DNA from: a virus
Taxonomy: Duplodnaviria > Caudoviricetes
IMG/VR virus record: IMGVR_UViG_3300032038_000025
Coordinates: 53,929-117,928 of that record
DNA length: 64,000 nt
Direction: 5' to 3' (one strand)
Shown here: positions 1 through 64,000 of the stretch, one piece after another
Layout: every line of letters starts with the position of its first letter
Numbering within the stretch: the stretch's first letter is position 1
Notes under the pieces: generated by a model
What the model saw: the letters and a program-made list of their open reading frames with translations, nothing else
Told to the model about the DNA's origin: nothing
Database searches by the model: none
Translations under genes and position numbers: made by a program

Positions 1-3000
1 GCAGATTCCATTTCTGCTTTTGCAGATTCTTTTCCTTCTTCAGCAGCCGCCCTTCTTTTCTTAAGAATTCCTTCTGTTAAATTATCATAATGTTTTCTTA
101 ACTAATCTGCGGCCTACCCCTATAAACCATACTGATCAATAAGATTTTCAATTTGAGATTTTAACTAATTTCTAGTAATTTCATGCTATTCATATTTCTT
201 TTGTAACTAGTCTAAAGATGAATATAATCCTCTTTGAGCCTAAATATTTTCTTGGATTGCATTTGCCTATTCAATATTTGCTTTAGCATTCTAAATGGCT
301 TGTCTTCTTGCTTGCTATTTTATTGTTATAAGAGTTGTTATAACTGTAGCAACTGCCATTACTGCTGCAACAGCCACACCAGCAGAAAGACCTCCCAAAC
401 CAAATAATCCTATAATGGCGGCTCTGGCTTGAGTAAAACCATAAATAAGCATTGGAATCATACTAGTAATATTTGTTGTTAATTGTAAAAATCTCTAACC
501 ATCTGTTAAATCTTTATTATTCCAAATATTACCAAGATTTTGAAATTGTTGGATAACCGAAGTTAATGTTGCAACGGAACCAGCTAATGCAGTCACATTT
601 TGAACAGTTGATTGTAAATCTACATCTTTTTTCTTTTGATTAAAACTTTTATTTAAAGCAGCTCTTTCTTCTTCTAATTTTTGCTTTTGTTGTCTATATT
701 CTTCTAATTTTCCTTCTTCTGCACTTTCTATTAATTCATCTATATGTTGAATTTGCGAATTTATAGTTTGCATTAAATTCTTATAAATATTATCTACAAC
801 ATCTGCGGCCTATTTATTAGTTCCTTTAAAAGTAGATGTATCAAAACTATTTAAATCATTTTGCATGTTTTGAAGAGATTTCTTTACATTATCAGATAAA
901 AAACTAAATGGACTATTAGCCTCATTTAATTTAAATCCATCAAAAACATCTTGCATAGAATCTTTTAAAGTATTAATTTGTTTTGCAAGCTGACCATTTT
1001 GATTAAAAGTATTGTTTTGATTTTGAGCATTTAATAAAGTAGATCCAGTAAAATCTTTATAAGCCTGTCTTAATTTATCTTGTTCTGTTTGGACTGGTTT
1101 AAATGCATCTTTAAGTTCTAATAATTTATTTTTAAATTTCTCAATACCATTTTGACCAGCTAGAGCCTCATTTAAGTCATTATACCCATCCATAAAAATA
1201 TCAACATTTTGACTTAAAGCCTTAAAACCCTATTCTAATAAATGATATTTTTCTCTAGCAACATCTAGCTCTCCAGCATTTTTACTTATATCTTGCAATT
1301 GCTTTTGCATGATATTAAAATCTCCTGAAGATAACTTTCCACTTTGAGCCATTTTTAAAAGATCATTCTATTGATTAATTATAAATTGAGTGGTATCATC
1401 TCCAACGCCTTTATCTTGTAAATTTTTAGCTTCTGCAATTGCATTTTTAATATATTGAGTTTGTTGTTTAACTTTCTCAAAATTATTAATAGTAGTAGTA
1501 ATACTGCCTGCTATTTGTTTACTAAAGACTAGCATAGCAACAGAACCAAGATCTCTTAATACTCCTATGCCGCCACCAATACTATCAACAAAATTAGCAC
1601 CAAAAGTCGCAAGCTATGATAATGCATCAATTATTTTATTAATACTATCTGTATCAGCTAAACTATCATATATATCTTCCATTGATGCCTTTAATGTTTG
1701 AAGATGTGCAGCTGTTGAATCCATATAAGTATCTTGTTGCTCTTGTAACGTACCTGCCGCACCTTGCGCAGTAGCTAATGCTTCATTATATTTTTCAAAA
1801 TTATCAAATAAAGCAATTAAATTAGAATATTGTCTTTGACCTGCCATAGTTTGTGCTAAAGAAATCTGTTGCTCACGAGTTAATGATTCCCATTTATTAC
1901 CAATTTCTTCCATTACCTCGCCCATATCACGAAGATTACCATTCATGTCAAGAACATTAAATCCTAATTCTGCCATTTTTCCAGAATAATTACCAAGAGT
2001 AACGCCATCTTCATCAATACCAGCTTTAATATCACTAATACGAGCATATACGGTTCTTAAAGCAGTACCAACACTTTCAGGCGCCTGCCTAGTAACAGAA
2101 ATAATTGTTGACAACTGTGCGGCTAACTGATCCTAACCTACACCCATCGCGGCGGCCGCACTTGCAACCTTACTCATACCAGTACTTAATTCCTAAAGGT
2201 TTGATGCCGTTGTTGCAGCAACCGCAGCCAGTCTATCAACATAAAGCTATGCTTCATCCGCGGTAACTTTATAACCATTCCATACAGCAGTTAACTATTC
2301 TGAAACAGCATCTGTTGATTGACCAGTAACGTTAGCAGCTTTAAGAGTAATTGCCGCTCTTGCCTATATCTATTTATCTGACAAACCCTGTTGTGCATAA
2401 ATTAATGCAGCATTGGTATAATCAGTTGTTGTTTTTCCTAATTCTTTTGCAGCATTATTAGCTTGTACTGCAAATTTAGCCATTTCATCACTAGATTTAC
2501 CAGTAACAATTCTAATATCATTTAATGATGTATCTAATGCTTTTACATATCCCCATGCCTGTTCAACAGATCGTGAAAAACCATTAACAACACTAGAAGC
2601 CACATTCCATTTAATTGTATTAGCAAGTGTTTTTGCCATTTTATCAAGTAAAGCATGGCTTTCTTTTAATTGAATATTAGTAGTTAAAAGTTGTGTAGTT
2701 AAATTTCTAAATGCGGCTTCTCCGGCAGCCCCCGCTCTAGTAAAAGTCTGATAAACTTGCTAAATTGGTAAACTCCCTAATTCTTTTTTAAAAATTTCAA
2801 GATTAACCGTTCCTAATTTAACATTAAAAGCCTTATCAAGTGCCTACTACACTTTCCTAGCTTCTTTTTCAATTTCCTTAAAATAGCCTCTTGCAGTTTG
2901 TATATCAGTATTATTAATCTTCATTACATCACTAACTTTCATTTTTTGTAAGTCTTGTAATGAAGATTTTAACTGATTTAAATTCTGGGTATTAACATCA

Positions 3001-3032
3001 AATCCAACTTGATATTTAATTTGATTTGCCAT
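1..3032 (-). CDS. Tail tape measure protein (TP901-like core); runs off the left edge; TAG read-through
   Basis: Five track ORFs (starts 3032, 2639, 2114, 1193, 773) share one frame and are separated only by TAG (about 24 TAG, no TAA/TGA in about 1010 codons). Typical TMP core: DTSLNDIRIVTGKSSDEMAKFA...TTTDYTNAALIYAQQGL and QTMAGQRQYSNLIALFDN. Confidence 0.9.
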
Positions 3033-3078
3033 ATCCTTTTATCTCCCTTATATATAATAACAAAAATCTATATATAAA

Positions 3079-3127
3079 AAAAGTATTATTTTATATAACC
3101 TATATAGCCATATAAAATAATACTTTT
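3079..3127 (-). terminator. Intrinsic terminator or long hairpin upstream of the TMP gene
   Basis: Perfect 18-bp inverted repeat AAAAGTATTATTTTATAT (3079-3096 / 3110-3127), followed by a U-run on the minus strand. Confidence 0.7.
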
Positions 3128-3142
3128 AACACTTATCATTAT

Positions 3143-3672: not shown

Positions 3673-5298
3673 TCAACATTTGCTTAACCTAATTTTAATC
3701 TCTGTAAATGGTTTACCAAACCAACCTGCGGTTTGATTTCCATCACCAGACTCCCAATTGGTGTCGTGAATTTCAGAATAGTATTTGTTATTATCATAGG
3801 GTTTTACAGAATATACTGCTTCATAGTAAACCCCACCAGTTTTTGTTGTATCTGTAGTATAATAGATTTGAATAGCATCTAAACTATTAACACCATTTCC
3901 TACCCACTGTCCATTAGAGTATTTTTTAGACCAACCTTTATTGAGGTAATGAACTCTATACTGAACAGAACCAGAAGAAACATTCATTTTAATTTTAAGA
4001 ATACTGTCATTTGCTACACCTGCGGCGGCGCCGTTCTTTGCAGCTTTAAGGGTGCCGTGATTTCTTGTCTGAAGGGTGTAAGAGATTGTAGGTGCGGCGG
4101 TCGCCATTGAAGCGCTCGTATTACCAGTGGTTGTAATAGTCGTCTAAGCGGTGGTTGCCGCAGCTCCATACTTCGGACGAGCATATCCTCGAATGTTGCC
4201 ATCGCCTATTGTATAATAGCATCTTCTTACAGCATTATTACTATTTCCTTCAATAGTAACAATTGTCTTACCATTCACGGTCTCGACAATACCAATGTGG
4301 TCTGCAAAACCATCATTGGGCTGAGTAGAATCGTCCCAGTTAAAGGTAATAATATCACCCGCTTTGGGAATAATGCTTCCATCTTCATACCAAATTCCTT
4401 TAGCTTTGAATAATTGTATATGCCTTTCAACGCCACATTCTGTTCCACCAATTAGATCAGTGGCACCAGCCTTGATAAACGCAGCAGAAAGAGTGGCATC
4501 ACACCATGCATCATACATGGAAAGAGCCACACCAAGAGCGAGAGGTTTATGATTGTTGTATGTATTAATAACATCTGCATGAGCATTGGCATTGTTAATC
4601 CATCCACGGTAAACATTCAGTACCTGTTCTGCGGTCACGCCAGTTTTAGCTTTTGCTTTTGTTGTAGTCTTTGACGAAGAAGATTTCTGCGCATACTTTT
4701 TCCAGTCGGCGGCAGTGCCATAAAAAATATTGAGATCCAGATTGGAATTATATCCATTTAATCTTCCTGCGCCAGTATACTGATAGATTGCAACCTTACC
4801 AAAAGTTCCCCAACCATTAGCGTCAGTCCAAGGATTAGATTGATATCCGTATACTAAATTATGATTTGCGTATTGCGCACACCAAAGTGGGTATCCCGCA
4901 GAACCAACCGACGCCGCAAGAGGAACAATACTTTTGCTTGTATAAAGGAAAGGCTTTACACCAGAAAGTTTATAAAACTCATCCATTAAATTTTTAAGAT
5001 AAGAAATATTGTTCCAAGCACTATTTTGATAAGACTACCAATCAATAGCCATAATAGCTTTTCCAATATAATTTTTTACTTTATTATAGAAAAACTTCGC
5101 CTATGCGGCAGCTCCACCGCCACCAACATAATGATAACACCCCGCAAGTTTACCTCTATTTAGCACAGTGTCGATCTTATAAAAATCAGGATTGATATAT
5201 GTTGTACCTTGCGTTGCCTTAACAATACAAAAATCATATGGTATCTTGGTTACATCTACTGAGTTATTTGAAGAAATATCAACTCCATTTAATGCCAT
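3673..5298 (-). CDS. Endolysin: GH25 muramidase + CHAP-like peptidase + C-terminal cell-wall-binding (ChW-like) region, 541 aa, 3 TAG
   Basis: Track ORFs 5101-5298, 4144-4986 and 3673-4107 are in one frame, joined at TAG 5101, 5035 and 4144. GH25 motifs GVDIS, IVKATQG, YHY, AIDW*S, YQYT and LDLN. CHAP-like WC...GDIITFNW...DHIGIVE...IEGN. Confidence 0.9.
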
Positions 5299-23094: not shown

Positions 23095-23610
23095 ATGTTA
23101 CATATTTATATAGATGGAAGTTGTCGCGGGAATGGTTATAAAGATTCTCGAGGCGGGTTCGGGATAGTAATATTTGACAACCGCCGCAATTTAATTGATG
23201 CCTATTGTTAGCAATTTGATAATGTAACAAATAATCAAATGGAATTAAAAGCATTCCTAAAAACATTTGAATTACTAAATACAAAATATAAAAATTAGGA
23301 AGCAACTATTTATTCTGATTCTGCATATTGTATAAATATCCTCACTTCATGGATTTACTCTTGGAGTAAAAATAATTGGAAAAATAGTAAACATGAAACA
23401 ATAAAAAATTTAGATATTATTTTATCTATATATAAATATTATAATATAGATTTTTTTATAAATCAAATAAATTTTATAAAAGTTGATGGTCATAATGGAA
23501 TTATAGGTAATTAGTTAGCGGATGCTCTTGCAACGGCAGACAAATTAAAATTTTCAAATATTATATTACAAAATCATATAAACATTAACCTTTTGGAAAA
23601 AACTTGCTAA
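23095..23610 (+). CDS. rnhA: Ribonuclease HI, 171 aa, 3 TAG
   Basis: IYIDGSCRGNG, TNNQMELKA, IYSDSAYC, KVDGHNGIIGN*LADALA; TAG at 23209, 23296, 23512; absent from the track. Confidence 0.9.
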
Positions 23611-31313: not shown

Positions 31314-31330
31314 GCATATTGGAGGAAAAA

Positions 31331-40315: not shown

Positions 40316-40576
40316 ATGAATGTAATAAAAATAGATATGATTAAAATTAAATAGGCTATACAAGAATATATTTATTTTCACACAGAATGGATGCAAGTTG
40401 ATACCATAATAAATTATGAACGTCCTATTGTTTTTATGAATGAAGATACTTTTTTACAAATCAAAAAAGAACAATCATTTTTACAAGATTGCTGTCTAAA
40501 GCCTGAGAAAAAAATTTTTGGATGTCATATTGCAATCGCGGATTGGCTTCCTTTTGGAGAGGTTCAATTGAAATGA
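40316..40576 (+). CDS. Hypothetical protein, 1 TAG
   Basis: Promoter 40250-40278 and SD AAGGAG; in frame with track ORF 40391. Confidence 0.6.
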
Positions 40577-42351
40577 AATATGAATTAATAAATCAACCAA
40601 ATAAAAATTTTTCAGCAATTCAACAAATTTTATATAATAGAGGAATGACAGAAAATGAAATTTTACATTATGTAAATTTATCTGATTAGGATATAAATTC
40701 ACCTTTATCATTAGGGGAAGAAAATTTAAAAGATGGTTTAAAATTACTTTTAAATGCAATTTCAAAAGAAAGAAATGCAATAATTATTGTAGACTGCGAC
40801 TGTGATGGTTATACATCTGCCGCACTTCTGATTAATTATTTATATAAATTATTTCCCGCTTGGGTAAATAATCATTTAGATTGGATTATGCATGATAGTA
40901 AGCAACATGGTTTATCTGATTGTATAAATAAAATTTCAAATTATTATTCCCTAGTTATTTGTCCAGATTCAAGCAGCAATGATTATAAATATCATTAGGA
41001 TTTATTTCATAAAGGAATTGGAGTTTTAGTACTAGATCATCACTTAGCAGATAATATTAGTCAATATGCAGTAATTATTAATAATCAATTATCTACTTAT
41101 CCTAATAAAGAATTATCTGGTGTTGGAATTGTTTGGCAATTTTGTAGATATTTAGATTCTATATTAGAAGTAAATTATGCAGACGAGTTTCTTGATCTAG
41201 TTGCGCTTGGAAACTGCGGAGATATGATGTCTTTACGCTCATTTGAAACTCGTTACCTTATTACAAAAGGATTTAAAAAATAGAATATAAAAAATCCATT
41301 TATTGATTATATGCTTGATAAAAACTCTTTTCCGCTATCAAAGGCTGATTATGTATCATCTAACTCCGATATGGCTTGCACATCTATGGGCGCCGCATTT
41401 TTTATTGTACCCTTTGTTAATGCAGTTACGCGTAGCGGAACAATAGAATAGAAAAATTTATTATTTAATTCTATGTTAAATCATCAGGCATTTCAAGAAG
41501 TTCTTTCAACGAAACGAGGACATAAATTAGGAGAGAAAGAAAAATTAATTTTACAAGCAGTTAGAACAGTCACAAACGTTAAAAATAGACAAACAAGAGC
41601 AGAAGAAGCTGGCTTGGCCATGTTAGAAAAAATGATTGAAGTTAATCATATGCTCGATCATAAAATTCTTTTATTTTTACTAGAGCCAGGCCAAATTGAT
41701 TCCGAAATTCGCGGTTTAATTGCAAATAAATTTATGGCAAAATATCAAAGACCATGTTGTTTGTTAACACGAACTAGCAGAAATGGAAAAGAGTCTTATG
41801 AAGGCTCAATGCGAGGCTACACCAAGACAGGTATTGATAATTTTAAGGAAGTTCTTGAACAATGCCCAGAAGTTATTTATGTGCAAGGACATTAGAATGC
41901 AGCTGGTCTAAGTATTCAAGGAGATCAAACTAATAATTTTCTTTATCATATTGATCAACTTTTAGAAGATGTCTCTACTGAACCTGTTTATAGAATAGAT
42001 TATGATTTTAAAGAAACAGATAATAATAATCAATATATTTTAGAAATTGCAAATATGAATGATTATTGGGGACAAGATATTGATCGAGCTTATGTAAATA
42101 TTAATTTTAAAATTACAAGTTCTAATTTTCAAATTATGAAAAGTAATACTTTAAAATTTAATCTCCCAAATGGATTATCTGTTATCAAATTTAATGGAAC
42201 TGATGAAGAAATTGCTTAGTTTACAACTACAGGATATTTAGAATTAAATGCAATTTGTAAATGTAATGCTAATGAATGGAATGGACGCGTTTATCCACAG
42301 CTTATCATATAGGATTATGAAATTATAGATTCATCTAAATATTTCTTTTAA
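40573..42351 (+). CDS. recJ: RecJ-like DHH ssDNA exonuclease, 592 aa, 7 TAG
   Basis: VDCDCDG, VLDHH, LSGVG, DLVALG..GD, GSMRG, QGH*NAAG, NEWNG...PQLII*DY; TAG at 40687, 40996, 41281, 41449, 41893, 42217, 42310. Confidence 0.9.
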
Positions 42352-46016: not shown

Positions 46017-46180
46017 GTAAGAAATAAATATTATGAAAGGAAGGTACGGTCCAATGGGCTAAGAAGTTGTAACTCGTTGACGCCTGTAGACAATAATATG
46101 GAGGGTACTCCAATGGACAATGTAGCTTAAATATTTATTTTTATGTGGTCAGGTGGGGATATCCCCCACTTGACTTTTTT
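46017..46180 (+). ncRNA. Candidate small RNA or minigene transcript
   Basis: Lies between its own promoter and terminator (46148-46180); no ORF over about 10 codons; ends complementary; internal diverged repeat. Confidence 0.5.
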
Positions 46181-46231
46181 ATTTTATTATATTATAATAT
46201 AAATATAAAATATAATGAAAGAGGTAGGGTG

Positions 46232-49200
46232 ATGGTAAAACGGTTTGAGGTTCACTCTCATTCAGAATTCTCGAATATACGATTATTAGACTGCATTAAT
46301 AAAATTCCAGCACTCATTGATAGAGCAATAGAAATTGGTTTATGCGGAATAACAATCACAGATCATGAATGTTTATCAGGTGCGCCACAAGCGAACTTTT
46401 ATGCTCAAGATATTTTAAAGGAACATCCAGATTTTAAAGTAGCATTAGGAGATGAAATATATTTAACTCCGAATAGAGAAATGGGACAAAAATATTATCA
46501 TTTTATTCTAATTGCAAAAAATAAAACTGGTTTTAGAGCATTAAGAGAATTATCTTCAAGAGCATGGATGAATAGTTATTGGGATAGAGGTCTTGAAAGA
46601 GTTCCAACAACTTATGCGGATCTTGAAGAGATTGTTAATAAATATCCAGGAACTTTAATTGCAACAACCGCGTGTATTGGCGGGCAAGTATCTTCTCAAG
46701 TTTTAAATCTTATTAAAGCTGAAAAGCATGAAGATAATAATGGAATTATAGAAGCACATAATAATATTGTAAATTTTATTTTATGGTGTAAAAAACTTTT
46801 TGGAGATGACTTTTATATTGAATGTGCGCCTGGCCAATCAACAGAACAGATTGCGGTTAATCAGCGTCTTTGTTCTGTAGCATCCGCATTTAAATGTAAA
46901 ATGGTTCTTGGTTCAGATGCTCATTACCTTAAAAAAGAAGATAGATATGTTCATAAAGCATATCTTAATTCAAAAGGTGGAGAACGTGAGGTTGACGCAT
47001 TTTATGAATATGCATATCTCCAAGATGAAAATGATATAAAAGAGAATATTGCTCCATCATTTTTGGATTATAATGAATTAGTAAATAATTCATATGAAAT
47101 TTATAATAAGATTGAAAATTATAGTATTGCACATAAACAAACTATTCCAAAAGTAAAAGTTAAAGATTATCCGAAAGAAGAGGCTCCGTGGTATTCAAAA
47201 GATTATCCAATATTAGAAAAAATGTATAAATCAGATGATATATATGAAAGATATTGGGTCCATGAATGTTTAAATCAAATGACAAATAAGCATCTTTTAA
47301 CAAAAGAATATTGGGATAGACTTGAGGAAGAAGCAGATATTAAAAAAACAATTAGTGAAAAACTTGAAACTAATATGTTTAGTTATCCAATAACTCTTCA
47401 GCATTACGTTGATCTCTTTTGGGAATGTGGTAGTACAGTTGGCGCGGGTAGAGGTTCATCCTGTTCTGGTTTAAATCATTATCTTTTAGGTATAACTCAG
47501 TTGGACCCAATTAAATGGGATCTTCCATTCTGGCGTTATCTTAATAAAGAACGAGTTGAATTAGGTGATATTGATCTAGACTTATGTCCGTCTAAACGCC
47601 CATTAATTCTTCAAAAAATAAAGGAGGAACGAGGTGCAAACTTTTCAAGTGAAATTGATGAACTCTCAAGGAAAAATCTTGGATGCACTCTTATAGCTAC
47701 CTTTGGAACAGAAGGAACAAAAAGTGCTATTCTCACTGCTTGTAGAGGATATAGAGGACAAGAATCTGGATACATTGTGTCTGGACCGACAAATGAAAAT
47801 GAAGACGGATGGGTAACTGATTATCGAGATGGTATTGATGTTGATACTGCACAATATCTTTCATCATTAATTCCAAGCGAAAGAGGATTTTTATGGCCTC
47901 TTAAAGATGTTGTTTATGGCAACAAAGATAAAGATAGAAAACCCATTACGGCATTTATTAATGAAATAAATAAATATCCTGGTCTTTTAGATATTGCAAT
48001 GGCAATAGAAGGAATTGTTAATAAACGCTCTAGTCATGCAAGTGGTGTTATTCTTTTCGATGAAGATCCTTATGAATTTGGATGTTTTATGAAAACCCCC
48101 AAAGGAGAAATTATTACTCAATGGGATCTTCATATGGATGAAGCATGCGGTATGACAAAATATGATTTTCTTGTAACAGAAGTACAAGATAAAATTGCAG
48201 AAACAATTAGACTTCTTCAAAAATATAATAAAATTGATAGTAATTTAACATTAAGAGAAGTTTATAATAAATATCTTCATCCAGAAGTATTACCATTAGA
48301 TAATAAAAAAATATGGGAAGCATTACAAAATAATAGTGTTTTAAATATTTTTCAGTTCGATTCAGATGTTGGTTCTCAAGCGGCAAAAAAAATTAAACCA
48401 ACAAATATTCTTGAAATGGCGGATGCTAATGGGTTAATGCGTCTTATGACCGCAGAAAAAGGCGCACAAACACCGATGGAAAAATATATTGAATATAAAA
48501 ACAATATTGATCTTTGGTATCTTGAAATGTGTAGAGCAGGAATAACTGTTAAAGAACAAAAAATTCTTGAACCATATTTTAAACAATCTTATGGTGTTCC
48601 ACCATCACAGGAACAATTAATGAGAATGTTAATGGATGAAAATATTTGTAATTTTTCTCTTAAAGAGGCGAACGCCGCCCGAAAGATTGTTGGTAAAAAA
48701 CAAATGGCAAAAATTCCTGAATTGCATCAGCAAGTTCTTGATAGAGCATCAAGTCCAGCTCTTGGTAAGTATGTTTGGGAATGCGGTATTGGGCCACAGA
48801 TGGGTTACAGCTTTTCAATTATCCACGCACTAGCTTATTCATTTATAGGAGTTCAAACTATTTATCTTGCGATAAACTGGAATCCAATTTATTGGAATAC
48901 AGCTTGTCTCATTGTTAATAGCGCATCTCTTGAAAATGAAGAAGATGATGATGAAGATGGAAATACAAAAGATAAATCCACTGATTATTCAAAGTTAGCA
49001 AAAGCTATTGGAGATATAACATCAAGAGGAATTAAAGTATCTTTAATTGATATCAATAAATCTGGTTTTAGTTTTGAACCAGATGAAATAAATAATGAAA
49101 TTTTGTTTGGACTAAAAGGTGTTAATAAAATTGGAGGACCAGTAATTGATCAAATTATTGGCGGCCGCCCATATAAAGGTATTATTGATTTCATGAATAG

Positions 49201-50227
49201 GTGCCCATTAAATAAAACTCAAATGATTTCATTAATTAAATCTGGAGCTTTTGATAAGGTTGATAATAACTGGGCATCAGAAATTTGTAAAGAAAATCCG
49301 AGATATGCAATTATGGCATATTATGTTTCAATTATAAGTGAGCCAAAAAAAAGATTAACACTACAAAATTTTAATGGATTATTAGAAAGAAAATTAATTC
49401 CTAATAATTTAATTTATGAACAAAGAACTTTTGCTTTTAATAAATATTTAAAAACAAAAAAATGTGGAAAATATTATTTATTAAATAATGAATCTGACCT
49501 TCAATTTTATGAAGATTTATATGATGCAGAAGAATTAGAAATTATAAATGGAGTTCCATGTATAAAACAAAAATCTTGGGATAAAATTTATAAAAACATT
49601 ATGGATACCGCAAGAGAATGGTTAAAAAATAATCAAGAAGAAATATTGCGGCAATATAATAATTTATTATTTAATGAAATGTGGATTAAATATGCATCTG
49701 GAAATATTTCTGCATGGGAAATGGAAAGTTTATGTTTTTATTATCATAAGCATGAATTAGCAGATATTAATAGATATAAATATGGAATTGTTAATTTCTT
49801 TGATTTATCTTATGAACCAGAAGTTGATTATTTTATTAAGCGAAATGGAAGAGAAATTCCAATTTTTAAACTTTATAAAATAGCAGGAACTATTATTAGT
49901 AAAAATAATACAAAAGCATCCGTAGCAGTTTTAACAACAAATGGAGTTGTTAATGTAAAATTTACCAAAGAATATTATGCAATGTACAATCGTCAAATTT
50001 CTGAAGTACAGGCGGATGGTAGTAAAAAAGTTCTAGAAAAAGGATGGTTTTCTCGAGGAACTAAAATTATGGTAACTGGTTATCGAAGAGAAGACACTTT
50101 CGTAGCAAAAACATATAAAGCAACTTCAACTCATCAATTATATAGAATTGTTAATATTAATAATTCAAATATAACATTAGAGCATGAAAGGAATAATAAA
50201 AATGACAGTGAAGGGCTTCCAGTCTAA
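46232..50227 (+). CDS. dnaE: DNA polymerase III alpha subunit
   Basis: PHP domain HSHSEFS...TDH, GRGS, DIDLD, HASGV, GYSFS..HA.AY; no TAG in about 1330 codons. Confidence 0.93.
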   Translation: MVKRFEVHSHSEFSNIRLLDCINKIPALIDRAIEIGLCGITITDHECLSGAPQANFYAQDILKEHPDFKVALGDEIYLTPNREMGQKYYHFILIAKNKTGFRALRELSSRAWMNSYWDRGLERVPTTYADLEEIVNKYPGTLIATTACIGGQVSSQVLNLIKAEKHEDNNGIIEAHNNIVNFILWCKKLFGDDFYIECAPGQSTEQIAVNQRLCSVASAFKCKMVLGSDAHYLKKEDRYVHKAYLNSKGGEREVDAFYEYAYLQDENDIKENIAPSFLDYNELVNNSYEIYNKIENYSIAHKQTIPKVKVKDYPKEEAPWYSKDYPILEKMYKSDDIYERYWVHECLNQMTNKHLLTKEYWDRLEEEADIKKTISEKLETNMFSYPITLQHYVDLFWECGSTVGAGRGSSCSGLNHYLLGITQLDPIKWDLPFWRYLNKERVELGDIDLDLCPSKRPLILQKIKEERGANFSSEIDELSRKNLGCTLIATFGTEGTKSAILTACRGYRGQESGYIVSGPTNENEDGWVTDYRDGIDVDTAQYLSSLIPSERGFLWPLKDVVYGNKDKDRKPITAFINEINKYPGLLDIAMAIEGIVNKRSSHASGVILFDEDPYEFGCFMKTPKGEIITQWDLHMDEACGMTKYDFLVTEVQDKIAETIRLLQKYNKIDSNLTLREVYNKYLHPEVLPLDNKKIWEALQNNSVLNIFQFDSDVGSQAAKKIKPTNILEMADANGLMRLMTAEKGAQTPMEKYIEYKNNIDLWYLEMCRAGITVKEQKILEPYFKQSYGVPPSQEQLMRMLMDENICNFSLKEANAARKIVGKKQMAKIPELHQQVLDRASSPALGKYVWECGIGPQMGYSFSIIHALAYSFIGVQTIYLAINWNPIYWNTACLIVNSASLENEEDDDEDGNTKDKSTDYSKLAKAIGDITSRGIKVSLIDINKSGFSFEPDEINNEILFGLKGVNKIGGPVIDQIIGGRPYKGIIDFMNRCPLNKTQMISLIKSGAFDKVDNNWASEICKENPRYAIMAYYVSIISEPKKRLTLQNFNGLLERKLIPNNLIYEQRTFAFNKYLKTKKCGKYYLLNNESDLQFYEDLYDAEELEIINGVPCIKQKSWDKIYKNIMDTAREWLKNNQEEILRQYNNLLFNEMWIKYASGNISAWEMESLCFYYHKHELADINRYKYGIVNFFDLSYEPEVDYFIKRNGREIPIFKLYKIAGTIISKNNTKASVAVLTTNGVVNVKFTKEYYAMYNRQISEVQADGSKKVLEKGWFSRGTKIMVTGYRREDTFVAKTYKATSTHQLYRIVNINNSNITLEHERNNKNDSEGLPV

Positions 50228-50537: not shown

Positions 50538-52829
50538 ATGATTTATGTAATTAAAAGAGATGGTAGACAAATGCCATTTGATACGGAAAAAATTAAAAAG
50601 GCTATTTTAAAAGCCTTTAAAGCGGTTGATGGTTAGATTTCTGATTATGCAGAAACAAAAGCTGAAAATATAGCAAATTATATTGAAGGCTATTGCGAAG
50701 ATGAAGTAAAACCATTATCCATTGAAGAAATTCAAGATTTAGTTGAAAATGGCTTAATGTCAACCAAAAGAAAAGATGTCGCTAAAGCATACATTAAATA
50801 TCGAGAACTTAGAACAAAAGAAAGAAAATGGAATAATGATATGATGCGGGCGGCACGTGAAAAACTCACAGGATCTCGTATTGACAATCAAAATGCTAAT
50901 GTCGACGAACATTCATTCGGCGGCCGCCGCGGCGAATTTGATTCAGTCATTGCTAAACAATATGCTTTAGATAATTGCATGTCAAAAATGGCTCGTGAAA
51001 ATCATTTAAATAATGAAATTTATATTCATGATTTAGATGCTTATGCGGTCGGTATGCATAATTGTTTGTCAGTTCCTTTTGATGATTTACTTGCAAATGG
51101 ATTTAATACTCGTCAAACTGATGTAAGACCTGCAAATAGTATTAATACAGCTTTTCAACTTGTTGCGGTTTTATTTCAACTTCAAAGTTTGCAACAATTT
51201 GGTGGCGTAAGCGCAACTCATTTAGACTGGACTATGGTTCCTTATGTTCGTAAAAGTTTTTATAAACATTATATTGATGGATTAAAATATTGTGAAGGTT
51301 TTACTCCAGTAAATGAGCCTAATAAACCAATTGCTGAATTGTCTATTGTTGAAGGGAGTTGGTATACTCCAGATATATATGACAAAGCATATCAATATGC
51401 TATAGATATGACTAAAAAAGAACTTCAACAAGCTGTAGAAGGTATGTATCATAATTTAAATACACTACAGTCACGAAGCGGAAATCAATTACCTTTCACT
51501 TCAATCAACTATGGCACTTGCACACTTCCAGAAGGCCGAATGGTAATTAAAGCATTACTTGAAGGTAGCATTAAAGGCGTTGGCAAATTTCATAAAACTC
51601 CAATCTTTCCTTGCGGTATCTTCCAGGTTATGAGCGGAGTTAATAAAGAGCCAGGAACACCAAATTATGATCTTTATAGATTAGCTCTTGAATCAACAGC
51701 AAAAAGATTATATCCAAATTATGCTAATGTTGATTGGAGCGGGAATGCAGGTTATGATAGAAATGATCCAACTACATACTTCTCAACGATGGGGTGCCGT
51801 ACCGCTAATGGTTTCGATATAAATGCCGAACCAGGTGTGAATCCGCAACGCAAAGATGGTCGTGGTAATATTTGTCCTGTAACAATTATTCTTCCCACTC
51901 TTGCAATGGAAGCAAGAGAAAAACCAATTTGGAATATAGAAACCATTCCCCCTATTAAATCTGAAGAAGAATATAATCAATTAGTTAGAATTGAATCATT
52001 TTTTACAATTCTTGATAAAAAAATTGATGAAGCTAAAGATATGCTTCTTGAAAGATTTAATTATATTTGTTCTCAAGATCCATCATCCGCAAAATTTATG
52101 TGGGAAAATGGTACCATGTTAGGATATAAACCAGAAGAAGGTATTTTTAGTGCAATGAAGCATGGTACATTAGCATTGGGCCAAATTGGTTTAGCAGAAA
52201 CTCTTCAAATTCTTATTGGAGAAGATCATACTACTGATAAGGGTATGAAACTTGCTAAACAAATTGAAGAGTTATTTTCAAAGAGATGTAAAGAATATAA
52301 GGAAAAGTATAAACTTAATTTTGGTGTTTACTACACGCCCGCAGAGAATTTATGTTATACTGCCATGAAAAAATTCCAGGAAAAATATGGTACAATTGAA
52401 AATGTTAGTGATAAAGAATTTTTCACCAATAGTATTCATGTACCAGTTTGGAAAGAAATTGATCCATTTACAAAAATTGATATTGAAAGTCAATTAACTG
52501 GATATAGTTCAGCTGGCTGTATTACTTATGTAGAATTAGATAGTGGTATTTTAAATAATATTGATGCGCTTGAACAAATTGTAAATTATGCTATGGATCA
52601 TGATATTCCGTACTTTGCTTTAAATATTCCTAATGACCTTTGTTTAAATTGCGGTTATACAGGAGAAATTAATGATAAATGCCCTATGTGCAGCGGCGAT
52701 AAGATACAGCGATTAAGACGCGTTACAGGATATTTAACAGGTGATTATAAAACTGCATTTAATTTAGGAAAGCAGCAAGAAACAGAAATGAGATTCAAAC
52801 ATTCTACCTTATTAAGAGGATATAAATAA
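50538..52829 (+). CDS. nrdD: Anaerobic ribonucleoside-triphosphate reductase with ATP cone, 1 TAG
   Basis: VIKRDG ATP cone recovered by reading TAG 50634; IYIHDLD, MGCRT, TPAENL, RRVTGYL glycyl-radical motif. Confidence 0.93.
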
Positions 52830-53311
52830 TGCGTATTGCAGGAATTATAAAAAATGATTTTACGAATGGATAGGGAACATGTGTTTCCCTATTCGTTCAA
52901 GGGTGTCCGCATCATTGCAAAGGATGTCAAAATCCAGAAACTTGGAGTTTTTCTGGAGGAGAAGAGCCATCTACTGAATTACGTGGTGAATTAATAAAAG
53001 CAATTTGTGCAAATGGAATCACAAGAAATTTTTCTGTTTTAGGAGGGTAGCCGCTATGTGACGAAAATCTTGAAGGAATTGATAAAATTATTTCAAGTAT
53101 TCGAATCGCATTTCCAGAAATAAAAATTTTCGTTTGGACTGGGTATACCCTTGAAGAATTATAGCAAAGACGAAATAAAAAAATTAATCATATATTATCT
53201 CAAATAAATGTATTAATAGATGGACGCTTTATTCAAGAAGAAAGAGATATTACGCTTAAATTTCGAGGAAGTAAAAATCAAAGAATTTTGTATCAAGGAA
53301 TTGATTTTTAA
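52829..53311 (+). CDS. nrdG: Anaerobic RNR activase (radical SAM), 160 aa, 3 TAG
   Basis: NG*G, GCPHHCKGCQN, LGG*PL, WTGYT, VLIDGRF, FRGSKNQR; TAG at 52871, 53048, 53162; absent from the track. Confidence 0.93.
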
Positions 53312-54271: not shown

Positions 54272-54272
54272 T

Positions 54273-55356: not shown

Positions 55357-56493
55357 TTATTTTTGTAAACTATTGATTACATCTGGCATATATTTTTCAC
55401 CAATATTTTGTAATGCTTCTTTTAAACTTTTATTTATAGGTCTTGCTTTATCGGTATTTTTCTTTTTCTGGGATTTTAAAGTTTTAACTATTTCTTGAAA
55501 ATTTGTCTGAGTTTGTATTTTTTTTGCTAAATTATATATTTGTTTTATTCCTAAAACTGATGCATCAGCACTTTTTACAGCAATCTACGCAATTCCATTT
55601 TGAAAATCACCAGTTAACATACCAGATTCATTTGTTACATTTTCTAATAAATAGTTCATAAATATTTCCATGTCATCTTCTAATGCAGAAGAAGGATTAA
55701 ATTCTTTTAAATTTAATAAATAATATGCATATGACTAATTTATGCTACCAAAAGAAGAAACATAAGCACCATTCCATTTTTGCCCACCGTATGGGTATAA
55801 CCATAAAATATATGAACCATGTTTTTTCTTTGCTGGAAAGTTTTTATATCTTATATGAGCTTTATTATACGCTCCGATTAATTTTTGATAATTATTATTA
55901 TCATTACTATCAATTGAAAATGCCTACTGTAATTTATTAATATGATTATTTAAATTATTTTGATTTTCCCTATATCTTAAAATTAGATTACCAGAACTAC
56001 TTATCTAAACATTTAAAAAATCTTTCATATTTGATGACAATAAAACCTGCGGCGCAATTTCTCCACTTTGCTAAAAAACATAAGCAGTAATAACTTTTTG
56101 CCCTAAAACAGCATTTAAATATTCTTGAATTTCAAAAGCAGATAAATAAATATTTAATGTTGTTTCTTTTATACTATTTGTAAAATTTTCTTTCATAAAA
56201 CTCTATCTTGCTTCTAAATATTTTTGATACTAATTTGAGGTTTTATAATTTTCAGTTTTTGCAACTATAGATTGTTTAATTTTATGCCATTCTTTTATTA
56301 TATTTTTTAATTTATTTTGAAATTCATTAATTTCTTTAATTGCTATATCATAATTCTTAATAAAAATATTAATTTTATTATTAAGAATTTTATACGCCTA
56401 TTCAATATTTTCTGCTTCTGTTGAAGTAGATGCCTATAAAATTATTTCAGCATTTCTACTTAATTCTCCCTAATCCCATTGTATATCAAGCAT
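55357..56493 (-). CDS. Hypothetical late protein, 378 aa, 10 TAG
   Basis: Single frame from ATG 56493 (SD GGTGGTG) to TAA 55357 with only TAG interruptions; absent from the track. Confidence 0.75.
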
Positions 56494-56513
56494 TAAATCA
56501 CCACCAATATAAT

Positions 56514-56544
56514 AAAAAACAGGGGATTAATTTCTTAATCCCCT
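56514..56544 (-). terminator. Terminator after the major tail gene
   Basis: AGGGGATTAA-N4-TTAATCCCCT plus a U-run. Confidence 0.75.
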
Positions 56545-56565
56545 TATTAAATTTATCAATTATCC

Positions 56566-57522
56566 TTACGGATTTGTACCGCCGCCAGAAGTGGTTACGG
56601 ACTCATCATGCTCGCTAGGAATAGAATCTTTTACAGACTCTTCAATGTCAAATCCTGCTTTATGTGGGAAGAGCGGTTTAGCCTCATTCTTAACGCCCTC
56701 TGCATCATCAACAATCTGAATAGCACAAAGAACTTTATTAGTTCTATTGAAATATGTGTATCCAGGGAATGCGTCCATTGTGAATGTAAAGGTACTAGGA
56801 TCACCAGTAGCCGCCATTGAGAATGTGAAGTTAGACTGAATCTTAACATTCGGGAATGTAATATTAGCCGGTAAGTCTTTACCATCAGACTGACGTCTAA
56901 ATAACGTATCGGCTTCAACATAGTAATAACCAGCAAAGTGCTCGGCATCAATTTGAAGTTCAGAAACAGTGCTAGCTTTCTTGATTACATAATAATCAAC
57001 CATAACAACACCAGAAGTAGCTCCACCAGTTAATTTCTTACCATCCTCAGAAACAGACCAATCATTAGAAATTTGTCCAGTAATATCTCCATGATTATCT
57101 AATGTCATAACATAAATAGGAGCAGTTTTGCAAATAATTTCACCAGATTCAAGAGCATCTGTTAAATCAATTTCGCCATTTGCTGCAATAGCATTGGTGG
57201 TTTGATGGAAATGAACTTGATCTTCAGACTCTGCGGCAGGTTTAAGTAAACCAGCACCAGAAAGCATAGAGAAACTAATCGGAGAAAGAAGAGCATCTTC
57301 AACAGTGAATGTTAATGTCTTCTAACCTTCCCAAGCAATTAATCGAGTATTTCCACGACCACCAGTTGCATAAACAGTGGTAGCGGCACCCTCTAATGTA
57401 GAAGTTTTAGCGGTATCAATATAGAACACAGGCTGGCCTTTTGAAAAGGTATATGGACCAATCTGTTGATCATTCTTGGCTTTAAAAACTACATTAGCAA
57501 TTTCACGTACACCAAATTTCAT
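56566..57522 (-). CDS. Major tail (tube) protein, 318 aa, 1 TAG
   Basis: Two track ORFs joined at TAG 57322 (LIAWEG*KTLTFTVEDALLS); NFTFSMAATGDPSTFTFTMDA. Confidence 0.8.
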
Positions 57523-57554
57523 TTGGATTTCCTCCTTATATTTTGTACAAAATA

Positions 57555-58313
57555 TTATCTATTATTTTTTTGTTTATCTTCATGAATATCCTTTAACCAA
57601 TCCTCGGGATCTTCCATACCAGTTGCCCCAGCAATTTTAAATCTTTCCCAAGAATCATAATGTAATTTTAATTCAAAACGGTTAAATTCATCCATTAGTT
57701 GATAAATAGTATAACCCATTAATGAATTTATATCTTTTTGCTATCCAACCGCTAAAATAGAAACATATCTGCTTAGAATAGCAACTCTTCCAGAATCAGG
57801 CGCCAGCTTCGCCCGTTGCTGTCTTCCTTGAGCAAATTTATTTGCAATCTTTTCAGCTAAAGAGCCACTAGGATTGTACTATTTATTCTCCTTATCAACA
57901 AGACAAAATATACTAATTAAAATTTCCTTAAATTTTTCAAAATTATCATTATTAATCTCTCCCTATTCTCCCGTCTAATGATTTTTCATTTTAAAACAAT
58001 TATTTTCAAAAGAGATCTAATAAATAGGAAAAATTAATGCTAGAATAGATGAAACTCCTATTCGAGATTTTTTAGCTTCAAGACTTCTTTCTTTTAACAT
58101 AATATTTATTATATCAAAATTTGTTTTATTTGATAAATTTTTTTTCTACTATGATGATAAAGAATTTTTATTAAAAGTTAATATTGAACATCCTAGCCAA
58201 AACCGCTATTCTGTAATATATGCTATTTCTTTAATTGTGGGAGGATGAATTACTAAACCCGCCTAAAAAAATGGAATATCATTTCCAGACAATAGCAATA
58301 ATTCATCAATCAT
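57555..58313 (-). CDS. Virion morphogenesis-region protein, 252 aa, about 9 TAG
   Basis: LLLSGNDIPFF*A.L.IHPPTIKEIAYITE*RF...YTIYQLMDEFNRF...EDWLKDIH; absent from the track. Confidence 0.75.
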
Positions 58314-58912
58314 CTTTTCATCCAATCATGACTACTCGGTAATAAATCATCTGTTCCATGAATTGCGGAATAGGCTAATGTATAACCAGATAAAGTTTCA
58401 TCTAAAACCAATTGATTACAGCCTAAAAATTGGAAAAGACCAATTCCAGATAATCTTGCATTATTTAAAATTCCATCAATATAACCACAAATTTTTAGCG
58501 GTCGGGTTCTAAAATTTCCTAAATCCCAATAATCAGTGTGACAAAGAACATCAATATAAACATTACAATCTCTATATTGAGAATTGTTTTGATTTACACT
58601 AAAATGATCAAAACTAATTATTAAATAACTTTTAATCTATTCATGCTCTTTCATACTAATTTTTGGCTATAATTTTATATATCCCTATTCTCTTAATTTT
58701 GCAAGACTCATGTCTTTTATTGCATTTCGATAAGTTAAACTTTTATCATTATCTAAACAATCTTTTGTATTAATCACCAATAACTTTTTTAATTCATCAC
58801 TATATGGCTGACTTTCTACGAATAATCTTTTCAAAATATTTTCTAAATCTTTTTCACAAGACATAAATGATGAAGTAAAATCAGTTGGTCTTAAAGCTAA
58901 ATTTTTTTGCAT
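58310..58912 (-). CDS. Putative tail terminator/neck protein, 200 aa, 3 TAG
   Basis: Track ORF extended through TAG 58685; YIDVLCH..W....RPLKI.GYIDGILN...GIG. Confidence 0.7.
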
Positions 58913-58939
58913 ATCTGTCTTTAACTCCTTTTATCTCTC

Positions 58940-59923
58940 TTAAATAGGTACAATTTCTATATTTAAAGTAATATCATCCTGTCCCTATCTTCTATATATT
59001 AAAGTAAACGTTCCCAAATCTCCAATTGAAATATTTAATGGAATAATTTTTAACTAACTTTTTAAATCTTGTTCTTCATCTTTCCATTTTAAATACCAAT
59101 GCCCCTAATCGGCATTATGAATTTCGTAATATGCTTTACTATATTGTGATACTTTTATTGGACCATCAATATATGGAGCGGTTTCGTCTACAGGATTTTT
59201 TTCATCAGTCTAGGCGCGTTCTTTTTCTGCGGCCTCCGCGATAGAATTTTCAAAAAATTCATCTAAGAAAACTTGAATAATGCCATCTCCATAATAAGGA
59301 TCAACGCCAACTACTTGCCAAGTTTTCTATTTATTTGATCGAGGATCTAAAATTTTTATAGTTTTAAATCGTTCAAAATATTCATTAGTTATATCATCTG
59401 CGGTAATATACATAACTAAAGAATAATTTAAGGTATTCCATTCTACCCCAGCCTTTTGAGTCCATTCAATTGAAGTTTCAACAGGCCCTCGAATATAAAC
59501 CCAATAAGAATTATTATCTATTTTTACCTGCTGATCGCATCTTCTAATTTCAGACCTAAAATAAGCATCTTCTTCAAGAGCCTATAAATAAACTAGCCAA
59601 TGAGTTTTAGTTTCTTTCCAAGTAAAAACATCTCCTGGTTTTATATTAATTAAGACTTGCCCCTAAGATGTTTTTCCTTCTCTTATGTCATTTAAAACAA
59701 CATCTCGATATGGAATTGAAAGTATTTTGTTATCATACGCTGGCTTATTTTTATCAGGATTAATTAAACATCTAAACTATTTTCCATCTTTTAAAATTGC
59801 GGTCGCCGCCTGATAGGAATATAAAAGCGCCTTTTTCAGACCTCTTTCCTTATCTTTAATAAATCTTTGCTATTGATTTCCACCTGCATAACGCAGCCTT
59901 GCTTTTAATAATTTTAATGACAT
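58940..59923 (-). CDS. Putative head-closure/neck protein, 327 aa, about 9 TAG
   Basis: DGK*FRCLINPDK, KPGDVFTW, WLVYL*ALEEDAYFRSEIRRC; absent from the track. Confidence 0.7.
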
Positions 59924-60234
59924 AGCTATTTTTGCAATTCATTCATTAACCCTAAACACTAAAAAATCGTTCTTCTATAACATGAAAAATCTTCTTTTTT
60001 GGTTAATGAATAAAGACCCTCCAATTTATTTATCAATGAAAAAAAAGTTTCTGAAGAGTTATTATTTAATAACCTTTGTAATCCAGATAATTCTTCTAAT
60101 ATTGTTTGTAATGGTTTCTGCCAATCTGATCCCTATTCTCGGCTAGGAAGTAATTTATAAATTTGATTTAAAAGATTTTGCAGTCTATTCTAAACAACTG
60201 AATCATCTATATTTATATTATATTTTAATATCAC
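59914..60234 (-). CDS. Hypothetical neck-region protein, 106 aa, 4 TAG
   Basis: GTG start; IYKLLPSRE*GSDW...KLEGL...YRRTIF*CL. Confidence 0.7.
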
Positions 60235-60815
60235 TGCTATCGCCCCTCTCTAAAATCAACGAGGTCTTCAACAGTGTGTTTAACTGGAGTTCTTAATAAA
60301 CCAAAAGTAGATCTCATAATACCCTTTTGATCTGGGGCGCGCCGCTTATAGAGCCTTTGAAGATGAAACCCTTCTCTTTCATAATCCTTTTTTAATTGAA
60401 GAAGTTTTTGCATATGATTAGCTTGAGAAGTAAATTTAAAATCAGACCCGCTATATTTCATCCTAGTATTTTCAACACTAGCTAATTGTTGGCTTAACCA
60501 TTCAACAATCATATAAGTTGATAAAATATTGATTTCTTCATGTGTTAATTGATTATTAAAATAACCTCCACCATAAATAATAGCGGTAACGGTCTAATGA
60601 TCACTTTCTGCCCCTTTATAAGTTTTTTCATCTGCAATCTCAAAAAACTCATAATCATTTAAATTAATTCTAGGAAATTCAAACTTTTCAATTGCTGAAA
60701 GCAATAATTCTTCTAACATTCTAAATGTATCAAGCTACGTCAGTTCTAAATACATATCATCGGTAATTTTTGAAAGAAAGGAGTCATATACAAGTGAAAA
60801 TGAAGTTGTATTCAT
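60231..60815 (-). CDS. Putative head-tail adaptor, 194 aa, 3 TAG
   Basis: SD AGGAGG; TSFSLVYDSFLSKITDD; DFKFTSQANH; ends GR*Q then TGA overlapping the next GTG. Confidence 0.7.
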
Positions 60816-60835
60816 TTATATACCTCCTAAAACAT

Positions 60836-61396
60836 TTATGGCTTATATCTGCGTCCAGTTGGAGTTGCGGTCTTCAGCGGTGCCGCACGTCGATTTGTCA
60901 CTCTACCATAGTCACCAGAAGTATCCTCTTCTCCGCCATCATATTTAGTATTTTTAATTTCAATGGCCCTAGTAACATCAAATCCAAGTTTTTCTTGTAC
61001 AGCATTTCTTTTAGCGACATCATTTAATGGAAGTTCAACCGCCATATCTTTAATAATTTCTCTAACTGATTCTGGAGCAAAATCTAAACAATCAAGGAAT
61101 TGATCTAATGTCCCTGTTTGCATTAATTTTTTAATATCTTCTTTTGAATAATGATATTCTGGCTAAGAGGTTTTATTAAAAAGTCTTGCAACAATACCTT
61201 CATCTTTAATTTCGAGAAACTCATTTAAAATTGTGCGACCGCCCGGCGCAAAAGATAATTTCTATAATTCATCAAAAGTAATATCTTTACTTTCTCCAGG
61301 ATAAAAATTTCTATGAACTCCTAAATCTGGAACATCATATCCAACTGTTCCATTATATTTATTAATAACTTTTACTAACGTGTCTTTATTAATCAT
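60836..61396 (-). CDS. Conserved protein downstream of the capsid gene, 186 aa, 2 TAG
   Basis: FDEL*KLS, *PEYHYS; in frame with track ORF 61123. Confidence 0.75.
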
Positions 61397-61421: not shown

Positions 61422-61452
61422 AAAAGGGGAGAATTATTAAAATTCTCCCCTT
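61422..61452 (-). terminator. Terminator after the major capsid gene
   Basis: AAGGGGAGAATT-N5-AATTCTCCCCTT-TT. Confidence 0.75.
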
Positions 61453-61471
61453 ATTAAATTATTATATATTA

Positions 61472-62566: not shown

Positions 62567-62583
62567 TATCTTTTTCCTCCTTA

Positions 62584-63120
62584 TCACTTAATTCTTTGAA
62601 TCTTAACACCAGGTGTTCCGTCTGGCATTGTATAATGATCTGTTGCGTTGTCTTTTACAACTTTAAATACAGGAGCATCTCCGTCTCCAGCGACAAGGAA
62701 TCCATCAGTTCCAACATGAAGCTTTGTTCCTTTGACTGGGAAAACCTGATCTACAACGACATTGGGACCAGTACCAGCCGCAAAAGTATTAGTTGTAAAA
62801 ATATCACCAATATTTGTCTTAATTAAACGAGGATATAATTTTCCATCTGTAAAATCCTCGACCTTATATACGAAATCCTTATGACTTTGATATCTCTCAT
62901 CATAAAGTTTTTCTTCATTATAAACAAGCATGAACTCGCCTTCGCCAGAAAAATTTACTTCACCAGCCGCATAATCATATTTAGCAAATTGGCCCTGTTC
63001 AAGCTGCTTAATATTGTCTGCCGCGGGAAGCTGTGCGTAAATCTGGCCAGTTACAATACCAGATAGGTGATTAGGCTCGACTTGTCCATAACCAATTCTT
63101 TTAGTTAAGTCTCTTGCCAT
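62584..63120 (-). CDS. Capsid decoration/auxiliary head protein
   Basis: GYGQVEPNHLS...IGDIFTTN...YTMPDG; lies between scaffold and MCP. Confidence 0.65.
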   Translation of the reverse strand: MARDLTKRIGYGQVEPNHLSGIVTGQIYAQLPAADNIKQLEQGQFAKYDYAAGEVNFSGEGEFMLVYNEEKLYDERYQSHKDFVYKVEDFTDGKLYPRLIKTNIGDIFTTNTFAAGTGPNVVVDQVFPVKGTKLHVGTDGFLVAGDGDAPVFKVVKDNATDHYTMPDGTPGVKIQRIK

Positions 63121-63149
63121 TTCTTAGCATCCTCCTAATAAATTAAAAA

Positions 63150-64000
63150 TTAACCAAGTTTTTCTTGTTCTTTAACAGCTTTCACCCATTCTGGTAGGCT
63201 GTTATTTTCATTATTATCATTTAAAGAATAAGTAACAATTTCTTCTTCTTTATTATTATCAACTTCTTCATTTAAAGTAAAGTTGATCTTTTTATCAAAA
63301 CAAATAACTGCAAGTTTTGCTTTAATTTCATCTAAAGTATACTTCTCTTTATTGCTAATAACATCTGCCTTATCTTCGTCAGAAAGCATATAAAATTCAG
63401 CAATAAGGGCATCCTTTTTCTGATTGTCAATTTCTCTTTTGAAATTTACAAGTTCCTAATATTGATTCTGAAGAGTGCTATAATTTTCTTTTAATGTATT
63501 AAGCTCTTCTTCAAGTAACTCATACTTTTTAGCACCTTTTTTATTTTCATCTTCATCATCTTCATCAGCATCAGAAGAACTTTCAGAATCTGACTTTTCA
63601 GTTTCTTCTTCAGAAGATTTTTCATCTTCATCTTCATCTTTCTTATTGACGTAATCAGCAGGAGCGGAAGCATCTTCTACATTATCATTGACTTCTGAAG
63701 CTGTCTCTACAACATTTTCCGCCTCTTGAGCAAACTCAGTAGCGGGTTCTACTTGCTCTTGTTCAACAGCCACAGTATTTTCAAGATTCTCCACTTGTTG
63801 TCCTCCTCCGTTTAAGGCATTCTTTAAATCTTGCATCATACTATAAAGTGTGTGCCTAAAATTGTCATCTAATGTAAATTTTGTACTTACATCTGGAGCC
63901 GTTACAGAAGCGCCTTCGAAGCAAGGCTCAACATCGTCTCCTAATATGCAAATTTTTTGAATAATTGCATCATTTATAATAAAGAAATCCATTCCATTGT
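63150..64000 (-). CDS. Prohead protease/scaffold, C-terminal part; 1 TAG; begins beyond the right edge
   Basis: ICILGDDVEPCFEGA, acidic linker, coiled coil; two track ORFs joined at TAG 63456. Confidence 0.7.

Follow-up and report, generated by a model that had tools for sequence, protein, structure and literature searches.

We analyzed a 64,000-nt stretch of DNA (the window), the right part of the IMG/VR phage contig IMGVR_UViG_3300032038_000025, here called G000, which belongs to the Caudoviricetes. From the sequence evidence we conclude, with a probability of about 0.9, that in this phage the amber codon TAG has been reassigned to glutamate and that TAA and TGA remain stops. The sequence data show that TAG is a sense codon at glutamate positions and that G000 encodes a glutamate-type tRNA with the anticodon CUA, one base from CUC. 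More broadly, it is likely that this unreported code serves a family of phages widespread in the ruminant gut, by means of a host-charged suppressor derived from tRNA-Glu, that four codes coexist in the family, and that part of what is annotated as "code 15" is being mistranslated.

In-frame TAG codons at glutamate positions

The G000 contig (117,928 bp, 32% GC, 88% complete according to CheckV) carries about 350 in-frame TAG codons. The original prediction, made from the letters of the window, had counted about 115 of them in about 30 genes; our recount gave 117 in 30 genes (113 in 29 called genes and 4 in the gene at 59914-60234), and every TAG it had singled out was found, at 5035 (minus strand, AIDW-TAG-SY), 53048 (LGG-TAG-PL), 23512 (GN-TAG-LAD), 52871, 42310, 32195 and 14899. 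Reading TAG through raised the open reading frame (ORF) coverage of the window from 0.73 under table 11 to 0.92, whereas reading only TGA through gave 0.76. Over the whole contig, the coding fraction (ORFs of at least 150 aa) rose from 0.42 to 0.78 with TAG read through, well beyond the 5% gain in coding density by which stop-recoded phages are recognized. In alignable genes, 283 of 289 TAGs were flanked on both sides by homologous sequence, the other six lying in over-called gene ends. TAA terminated 94 of the 110 called genes. Aligning G000 with two relatives (15,504 and 10,231 codons) revealed two and one in-frame TAA, respectively, and no TGA. Because TAA is the main stop and almost never in frame, a peritrich-type code, in which both TAA and TAG mean glutamate, was ruled out. 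Cattle and sheep gut contigs from other studies span the TAG-rich stretches with few differences and keep TAG (one run may be the source sample); at 59329 and 60737, related contigs have GAG or GAA instead.

The amino acid was assigned by comparison with 59 related loci, ten related IMG/VR genomes (G001-G010) and the described phage phAss-1. TAG was translated as X, the proteins were clustered and aligned, and each codon was scored against the column profiles of the other genomes' non-TAG codons; since the aligned genomes are kin and their columns non-independent, the resulting log-likelihood (lnL) values are not probabilities. Over 119 columns, TAG of G000 scored +118.5 for Glu, −6.1 for Gln and −8.9 for Asp, and all twelve control codons were decoded correctly. 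With the reference restricted to genomes that do not read TAG as Glu (G003, G002 and phAss-1), the scores were +49.4 for Glu and −14.2 for Gln, and opposite G003, which is not recoded, TAG of G000 faced Glu 45 times and Gln once. Eight of the IMG/VR genomes (G001 and G004-G010) likewise gave Glu. By contrast, the positive control G002 was called Gln (+124.0 versus −25.3 for Glu), as was phAss-1, in agreement with its publication; the test therefore separates both codes inside one family.

Conserved TAG columns pooled over the nine Glu-type genomes (n = 151) held 117 Glu, 10 Lys, 9 Asp, 5 Gly and 4 Gln, compared with 489 Glu and 11 Gln among 638 GAA columns and 152 Gln and 9 Glu among 186 CAG columns. 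TAG columns are thus like those of GAA (77.5% versus 76.6% Glu; 2.6% versus 1.7% Gln) and unlike those of CAG (82% Gln). Codon usage agreed: per 1000 codons, G000 has 64.4 GAA or GAG (GAR) and 10.0 TAG, close to the 77.4 GAR of G003, with CAA and CAG (CAR) unchanged, whereas in G002 CAR drops to 24.2, so that TAG fills a CAR deficit there and a GAR deficit in G000.

Individual motifs, on which the original prediction had leaned, proved of unequal value. In the endolysin, the TAG at 5035 supplies the second acidic residue of the GH25 D-x-E motif, a position held by Glu in PDB entries 2WAG and 6ZMV and in all 40 ungapped homologues (42 of 48 at residue 66); the Pfam score was 82.6 bits with Glu, 78.2 with Gln and 76.0 with Lys, a margin of 4.4 bits over Gln. 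This argument is strong, and so is that from the GGE(P) motif of the radical-SAM activase NrdG, where 7 of 7 relatives have GAA or GAG and Glu outscored Gln by 2.8 bits for Fer4_12 (141.1 versus 138.3) and 3.4 bits for Radical_SAM (39.2 versus 35.8); a comparison of NrdG with the PDB gave no match. For the N-E-x-x-D helix of RNase HI, the predicted Glu is indeed commonly conserved, but it is non-catalytic and favored over Gln by only 0.2 bits, and 5 of 6 relatives have Gln opposite another TAG of this gene. Scores for Glu and Gln were near neutral for the RNase H, DHH and dUTPase families. Three further arguments turned out to be uninformative: the NrdG TAG at 52871 (NG-TAG-G), where homologues have Val, Thr or Lys; the fibre-repeat pair at 14899, a position that varies among the nine repeats; and the KFWI-TAG-MY site of the GIY-YIG protein, whose Pfam score is higher with Gln. 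Together, the profile test, the pooled columns and the body of the tRNA described below support the inference that TAG would be read as glutamate in this lineage.

The suppressor tRNA and its proposed charging

ARAGORN predicted 21 tRNAs in G000, all upstream of the window, and one of them has the anticodon CUA (G000:14367-14438, plus strand, about 39.5 kb upstream of the window), a suppressor tRNA of the kind by which recoded phages are recognized. It has a GUC/GAC D stem with U11:A24, a 4-nt variable loop, A37, A73 and a strong C1:G72 pair. Its D-arm motif was found in 116 bacterial tRNAs of GTDB genomes: 115 were called as tRNA-Glu, and the call for the remaining one was Glu but ambiguous. 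The nearest neighbors in this set are tRNA-Glu of Bacillota, including CUC isoacceptors one base from CUA; because the set was selected by the motif, only the count of carriers is unbiased. The suppressor looks Bacillota-derived. Of the features proposed by the original prediction for a scan of the contig, the tRNA-CUA was thus found, with a tRNA-Glu body, and a glutamyl-tRNA synthetase (GluRS) and RF2 were not: G000 and four relatives each yielded no match to GluRS or glutaminyl-tRNA synthetase (GlnRS) (PF00749) or to release factors (PF00472), an absence that is not proven for G000, which is about 88% complete. A search of viral contigs with an exact 35-nt pattern of the suppressor matched no other contig.

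Glutamate determinants include U11:A24, A37 and a short variable loop lacking residue 47, whereas a weak 1:72 pair and G73 are typical of tRNA-Gln (PMC9976931). The tRNA-CUA of G000 has U11:A24, lacks residue 47, and has neither the weak 1:72 pair nor G73. It lacks the U13-G22:A46 triple and G1:C72, having A13 and C1:G72; A13 also belongs to the D-arm motif found in Bacillota tRNA-Glu, which makes the triple an E. coli rule. Among the suppressors found, position 1:72 is C:G, G:C or G:U in eight of Glu type and U:A, A:U or U:C in four of Gln type, in line with the identity rules of PMC9976931; this counts as one contrast and not many, since related phages inherit such features together. We propose that the host's own GluRS charges the tRNA-CUA. 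The short variable loop, U11:A24, U35 and A37 would be the Glu determinants that it retains, and GlnRS and GatCAB would be kept off it by A73 and the strong 1:72 pair. Position 36 would be the weak step, charging being slow yet sufficient at high tRNA levels or aided by a further factor, and Glu-tRNA(CUA) could then outcompete release factor RF1 at UAG late in infection. An engineered amber suppressor made from E. coli tRNA-Glu reportedly inserts Glu for the most part; it does not count as evidence here.

Two other accounts of the tRNA were considered. Pyrrolysine, suggested by the ARAGORN label "Pyl", was rejected because the cloverleaf is canonical and nearest to tRNA-Glu and TAG stands at Glu columns; pyl genes were not searched for. 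A mechanism in which a non-discriminating GluRS acts with GatCAB, Glu or Gln being chosen at U1:A72, was weakened by the finding that five sampled gut Bacillota have GlnRS and four of them have no GatB match.

Some other predicted tRNAs are unusual. That of G002 with anticodon CUA (L099:16980-17070) has U1:A72 but a long variable arm, and its nearest neighbors are Ser and Leu tRNAs; one phAss-1 suppressor is similar. In the Glu-type genome G001, ARAGORN reported a weak-looking tRNA with the ochre anticodon UUA (L095:14222-14296). In G000, a tRNA called Lys (G000:17473-17556, anticodon UUU) has a long variable arm and a Leu/Ser-like body, and a tRNA-Thr with anticodon AGU, which is rare in bacteria, lies at G000:14617-14689, just after the pair formed by a tRNA-Asp (14289-14362) and the CUA suppressor. 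A "Pyl (CTA)" call on a Peptostreptococcus anaerobius contig (L216:1086-1162) looks like a mis-registered tRNA-Arg(UCU).

Gene classes and alternative readings

TAG is enriched in structural and lysis genes and avoided in replication genes, as in stop-recoded phages (Table 1). Outside the replication block its share of Glu codons was 0.34, 0.28 and 0.15 (three blocks), compared with 0.04 inside; it was about 30% in the tape-measure gene and adjoining genes; the full tape-measure gene of G000 (2854 aa) has 85 TAG and 186 GAR codons. At 61165, in the head-neck-tail block, the aligned column consists of 33 Glu and one TAG. No TAG occurs in several of the fibre genes or in the putative major capsid gene.

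Table 1. Features of the window and their in-frame TAG codons
Feature	Position	Strand	TAG codons and remarks
Window	1..64000		Right part of the phage contig (G000:53929-117928); 117 in-frame TAG in 30 genes
Tape-measure gene, 5′ part	1..3032	−	PHROG tape-measure matches; 24 TAG in the window
GH25 + CHAP endolysin	3673..5298	−	541 aa; 3 TAG, at residues 66 (5101-5103), 88 (5035-5037) and 385 (linker)
Fibre-like protein	12664-15114	−	Nine short S-H-A/S-E-G repeats
RNase HI	23095..23610	+	3 TAG; opposite TAG 23512, human RNase H1 and 6/6 relatives have Glu
Other long genes of the replication block	23667, 26376, 28798, 36556		TAG-free; putative gyrase subunits, ligase and helicase, names presumed by reading
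GIY-YIG protein	31319..32251	+	13 TAG (33% of Glu codons)
RecJ (DHH) exonuclease	40522..42351	+	7 TAG, of which two fall on conserved Glu columns
DNA polymerase III alpha-type gene	46145..50227	+	0 TAG among 106 Glu codons
NrdG radical-SAM activase	52829..53311	+	3 TAG; TAG 53048 supplies the GGEP glutamate
Head-neck-tail block	55357..61396	−	41 TAG; opposite several of them, most relatives have Glu

Without suppression, the endolysin would stop after 65 residues. The TAG-poor core replication genes could be made in the host's standard code, whereas the lysin, the tape measure and other virion proteins would need the suppressor, which may act as a gate that sets when late genes are expressed and lysis begins, a model put forward earlier for code-15 phages.

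Several observations weigh against a glutamate code that operates in this way. The genes for RecJ, RNase H, NrdG and the GIY-YIG protein carry TAG, and the early/late split is not clean; together with the TAG-free putative capsid and fibre genes, this means that the gate is not strictly one between early and late genes. In G000 alone, Gln was found at 5 of 32 conserved TAG columns, compared with 0 of 68 for GAG, and the GIY-YIG Pfam profile favors Gln by 2.1 bits (36.3 versus 34.2 with Glu). The Gln columns are most simply accounted for by CAG-to-TAG transitions, and their proportion falls to 4 of 151 when the genomes are pooled, but TAG may be partly decoded as Gln in G000. As regards the tRNA, C1:G72 differs from the bacterial tRNA-Glu consensus (G:C or G:U); it is common to six suppressors, in which its one apparent role would be to keep GlnRS out. 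By whole-sequence identity, the suppressors of four relatives are as close to Asp or Met as to Glu tRNAs. The tRNA-CUA has A36, as any amber suppressor must, and recognition by E. coli GluRS relies strongly on C36 (PMC9976931). Moreover, three GluRSs sampled from gut Bacillota have Arg at or beside the position of T. thermophilus Arg358, and GlnRS is present in the five sampled gut Bacillota genomes. Charging with A36 would therefore have to be tolerated or helped by a further factor.

The default in the literature is that TAG means glutamine (code 15), as in crAss-like phages, Lak phages and phAss-1, in which case the Glu columns would be Glu-to-Gln changes tolerated after GAG mutated to TAG. 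The five Gln columns of G000 and the GIY-YIG score fit this reading, but it faces an lnL gap of about 125 in favor of Glu, genuine Gln-type relatives that give the opposite pattern in the same test, a CAR content that is not reduced in G000, and a Glu-bodied suppressor without U1:A72 or G73; the catalytic acid of the lysin would also be lost. We consider it very unlikely. Somewhat less improbable, but still unlikely, is an ambiguous TAG, mostly Glu with appreciable Gln, the tRNA-CUA being charged by both host enzymes. GlnRS reads U35 and mischarges amber suppressors (PMC9976931), it is present in likely hosts, and G000, G009, G004 and G007 show a slight excess of Gln columns. On the other hand, Gln at pooled TAG columns is nearly as rare as at GAA columns, the strong 1:72 pair and A73 are unfavorable for GlnRS, and TAG occupies invariant and catalytic Glu sites.

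Could the TAGs have arisen from errors of sequencing or assembly, or as real nonsense mutations of a phage that is defective? A single G-to-T change makes TAG from GAG, and the evidence comes from contigs, not raw reads. However, GAA is 4.6 times commoner than GAG in G000, so that such errors would chiefly turn GAA into TAA, which is seen in frame almost never; the artefact is therefore excluded for practical purposes. The same code in eight further genomes from other IMG/VR datasets, which have 53 TAG sites in common with G000, the persistence of TAG in contigs from other studies, the CUA tRNA and the confinement of TAG to certain gene classes all argue the same way. Finally, the host itself might read TAG as glutamate and the phage simply match it, a correspondence of the kind assumed for code-25 phages and their hosts. 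This is most improbable, given that the phage brings its own suppressor, that its core replication genes, including the polymerase, are TAG-free, and that close relatives use table 11, TAG as Gln or TGA as Trp. Such relatives fit code switching on standard-code hosts.

The phage family, its codes and its probable hosts

Four codes occur in the family: table 11, TAG as Gln, TAG as Glu, and TGA as Trp, the last in L296 (an IMG/VR contig of 127,072 bp), which has 10 TGA codons at Trp columns. In a tree rooted on phAss-1, the Gln-type G002 branched first, followed by two Glu-type groups with the standard-code G003 between them. An approximately unbiased (AU) test did not reject a single Glu-type clade (p-AU 0.146) and rejected a grouping of G003 with G002. 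Because the best tree nests G003 among Glu-type genomes and the single clade has a p-AU of 0.146, we claim neither a reversion nor two origins. GAG reaches 17.1 per 1000 codons in G003, the highest among the AT-rich genomes (8-12 in the others), and is frequent opposite TAG of G000; ancestry and reversion would both allow this.

A rumen member of the Bacillota is the probable host; the closest relatives in culture are phages of Enterococcus and Bacillus. Scanning GTDB contigs for the lysin turned up no host. When 20 kb of the phage were compared with two samples of 401 genomes (from the families of a Butyrivibrio and an Oscillospiraceae genome), only gene-level matches were obtained, at 65-92% identity, and none of the short spacer-sized matches in the sampled genomes lay within a CRISPR array.

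The nearest described recoded phage that we found is phAss-1 (proposed Phassvirus; OQ749652; about 136 kb), which has many tRNAs, CUA suppressors among them (PMC10607447). Its putative capsid protein is 52.6% identical to that of G000, but core proteins are only 34% identical, which places G000 outside Phassvirus, defined by more than 80% nucleotide identity to phAss-1. The two also differ in code, TAG being Gln in phAss-1, in its three suppressors with a weak 1:72 pair and G73, and in GC content (44.5% versus 32%). Distant relatives are the cultured Enterococcus phages EF1, EF5, H1 and VRE9, similar to G000 in genome size (putative capsid homologue 37% and polymerase 40% identical), of which EF1 was reported not to be recoded (PMC10607447).

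Like G000, the code-15 gut phages (crAss-like, Lak, Agate, Garnet, Amethyst and Topaz) read amber as sense, keep TAA and TGA as stops, carry a CUA suppressor and no synthetase of their own, and concentrate TAG in structural and lysis genes; they differ in the amino acid, Gln there and Glu in G000. The Agate clade resembles the G000 family, by description only, in genome size (127-144 kb in the latter) and in its mix of table 11, TAG and TGA-as-Trp codes. Borges et al. recognized only TAG-to-Gln and TGA-to-Trp changes where the phage code differs from that of the host, judged "in most cases" by terminase alignments, and tied the recoding of structural and lysis genes to the timing of late genes and lysis (bioRxiv 10.1101/2021.08.26.457843). 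Proteomics of code-15 gut phages has been published (PMC9523058), a 2026 survey of jumbo phages assigned code 15 by coding density, and a theta-ribozyme study predicted suppressor isotypes for Gln, Trp, Ile and Tyr. The open-access literature that we searched, subscription journals being outside the search, describes no phage or prokaryote with TAG as glutamate, and within that scope the original prediction of an unreported code stands.

Among eukaryotes, UAG means glutamate in Blastocrithidia. It does so too in peritrich ciliates, where both UAR codons are Glu, and in an uncultured ciliate with UAA as Lys and UAG as Glu (PMC11687900, PMC10553269). In these nuclear codes UAA is reassigned as well, and UGA or context ends genes, whereas G000 keeps UAA as a stop and its code would be imposed by a virus.

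TAG as glutamate would add a third amino acid to the stop reassignments imposed by phages. It goes against the published argument that Gln and Trp are the sole options, GlnRS and TrpRS being the only synthetases open to repurposing. Where pipelines infer code 15 from coding density, they would enter Gln in place of Glu at thousands of positions, catalytic residues included, and metaproteomic searches would take the 0.984-Da difference between the two for deamidation. A family with four codes makes the gain and switching of codon meaning, and the tRNA bases that decide between Glu and Gln, directly testable, and a natural Glu-inserting amber suppressor would be a usable reagent.

Rfam gave no match within the 64-kb window. 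Five gene families common to all the other genomes are missing from G000, which fits an incomplete contig. The cumulative GC skew of G000 changes direction at about 35-40, 65-70 and 105-110 kb, tracking the strand blocks of its genes.

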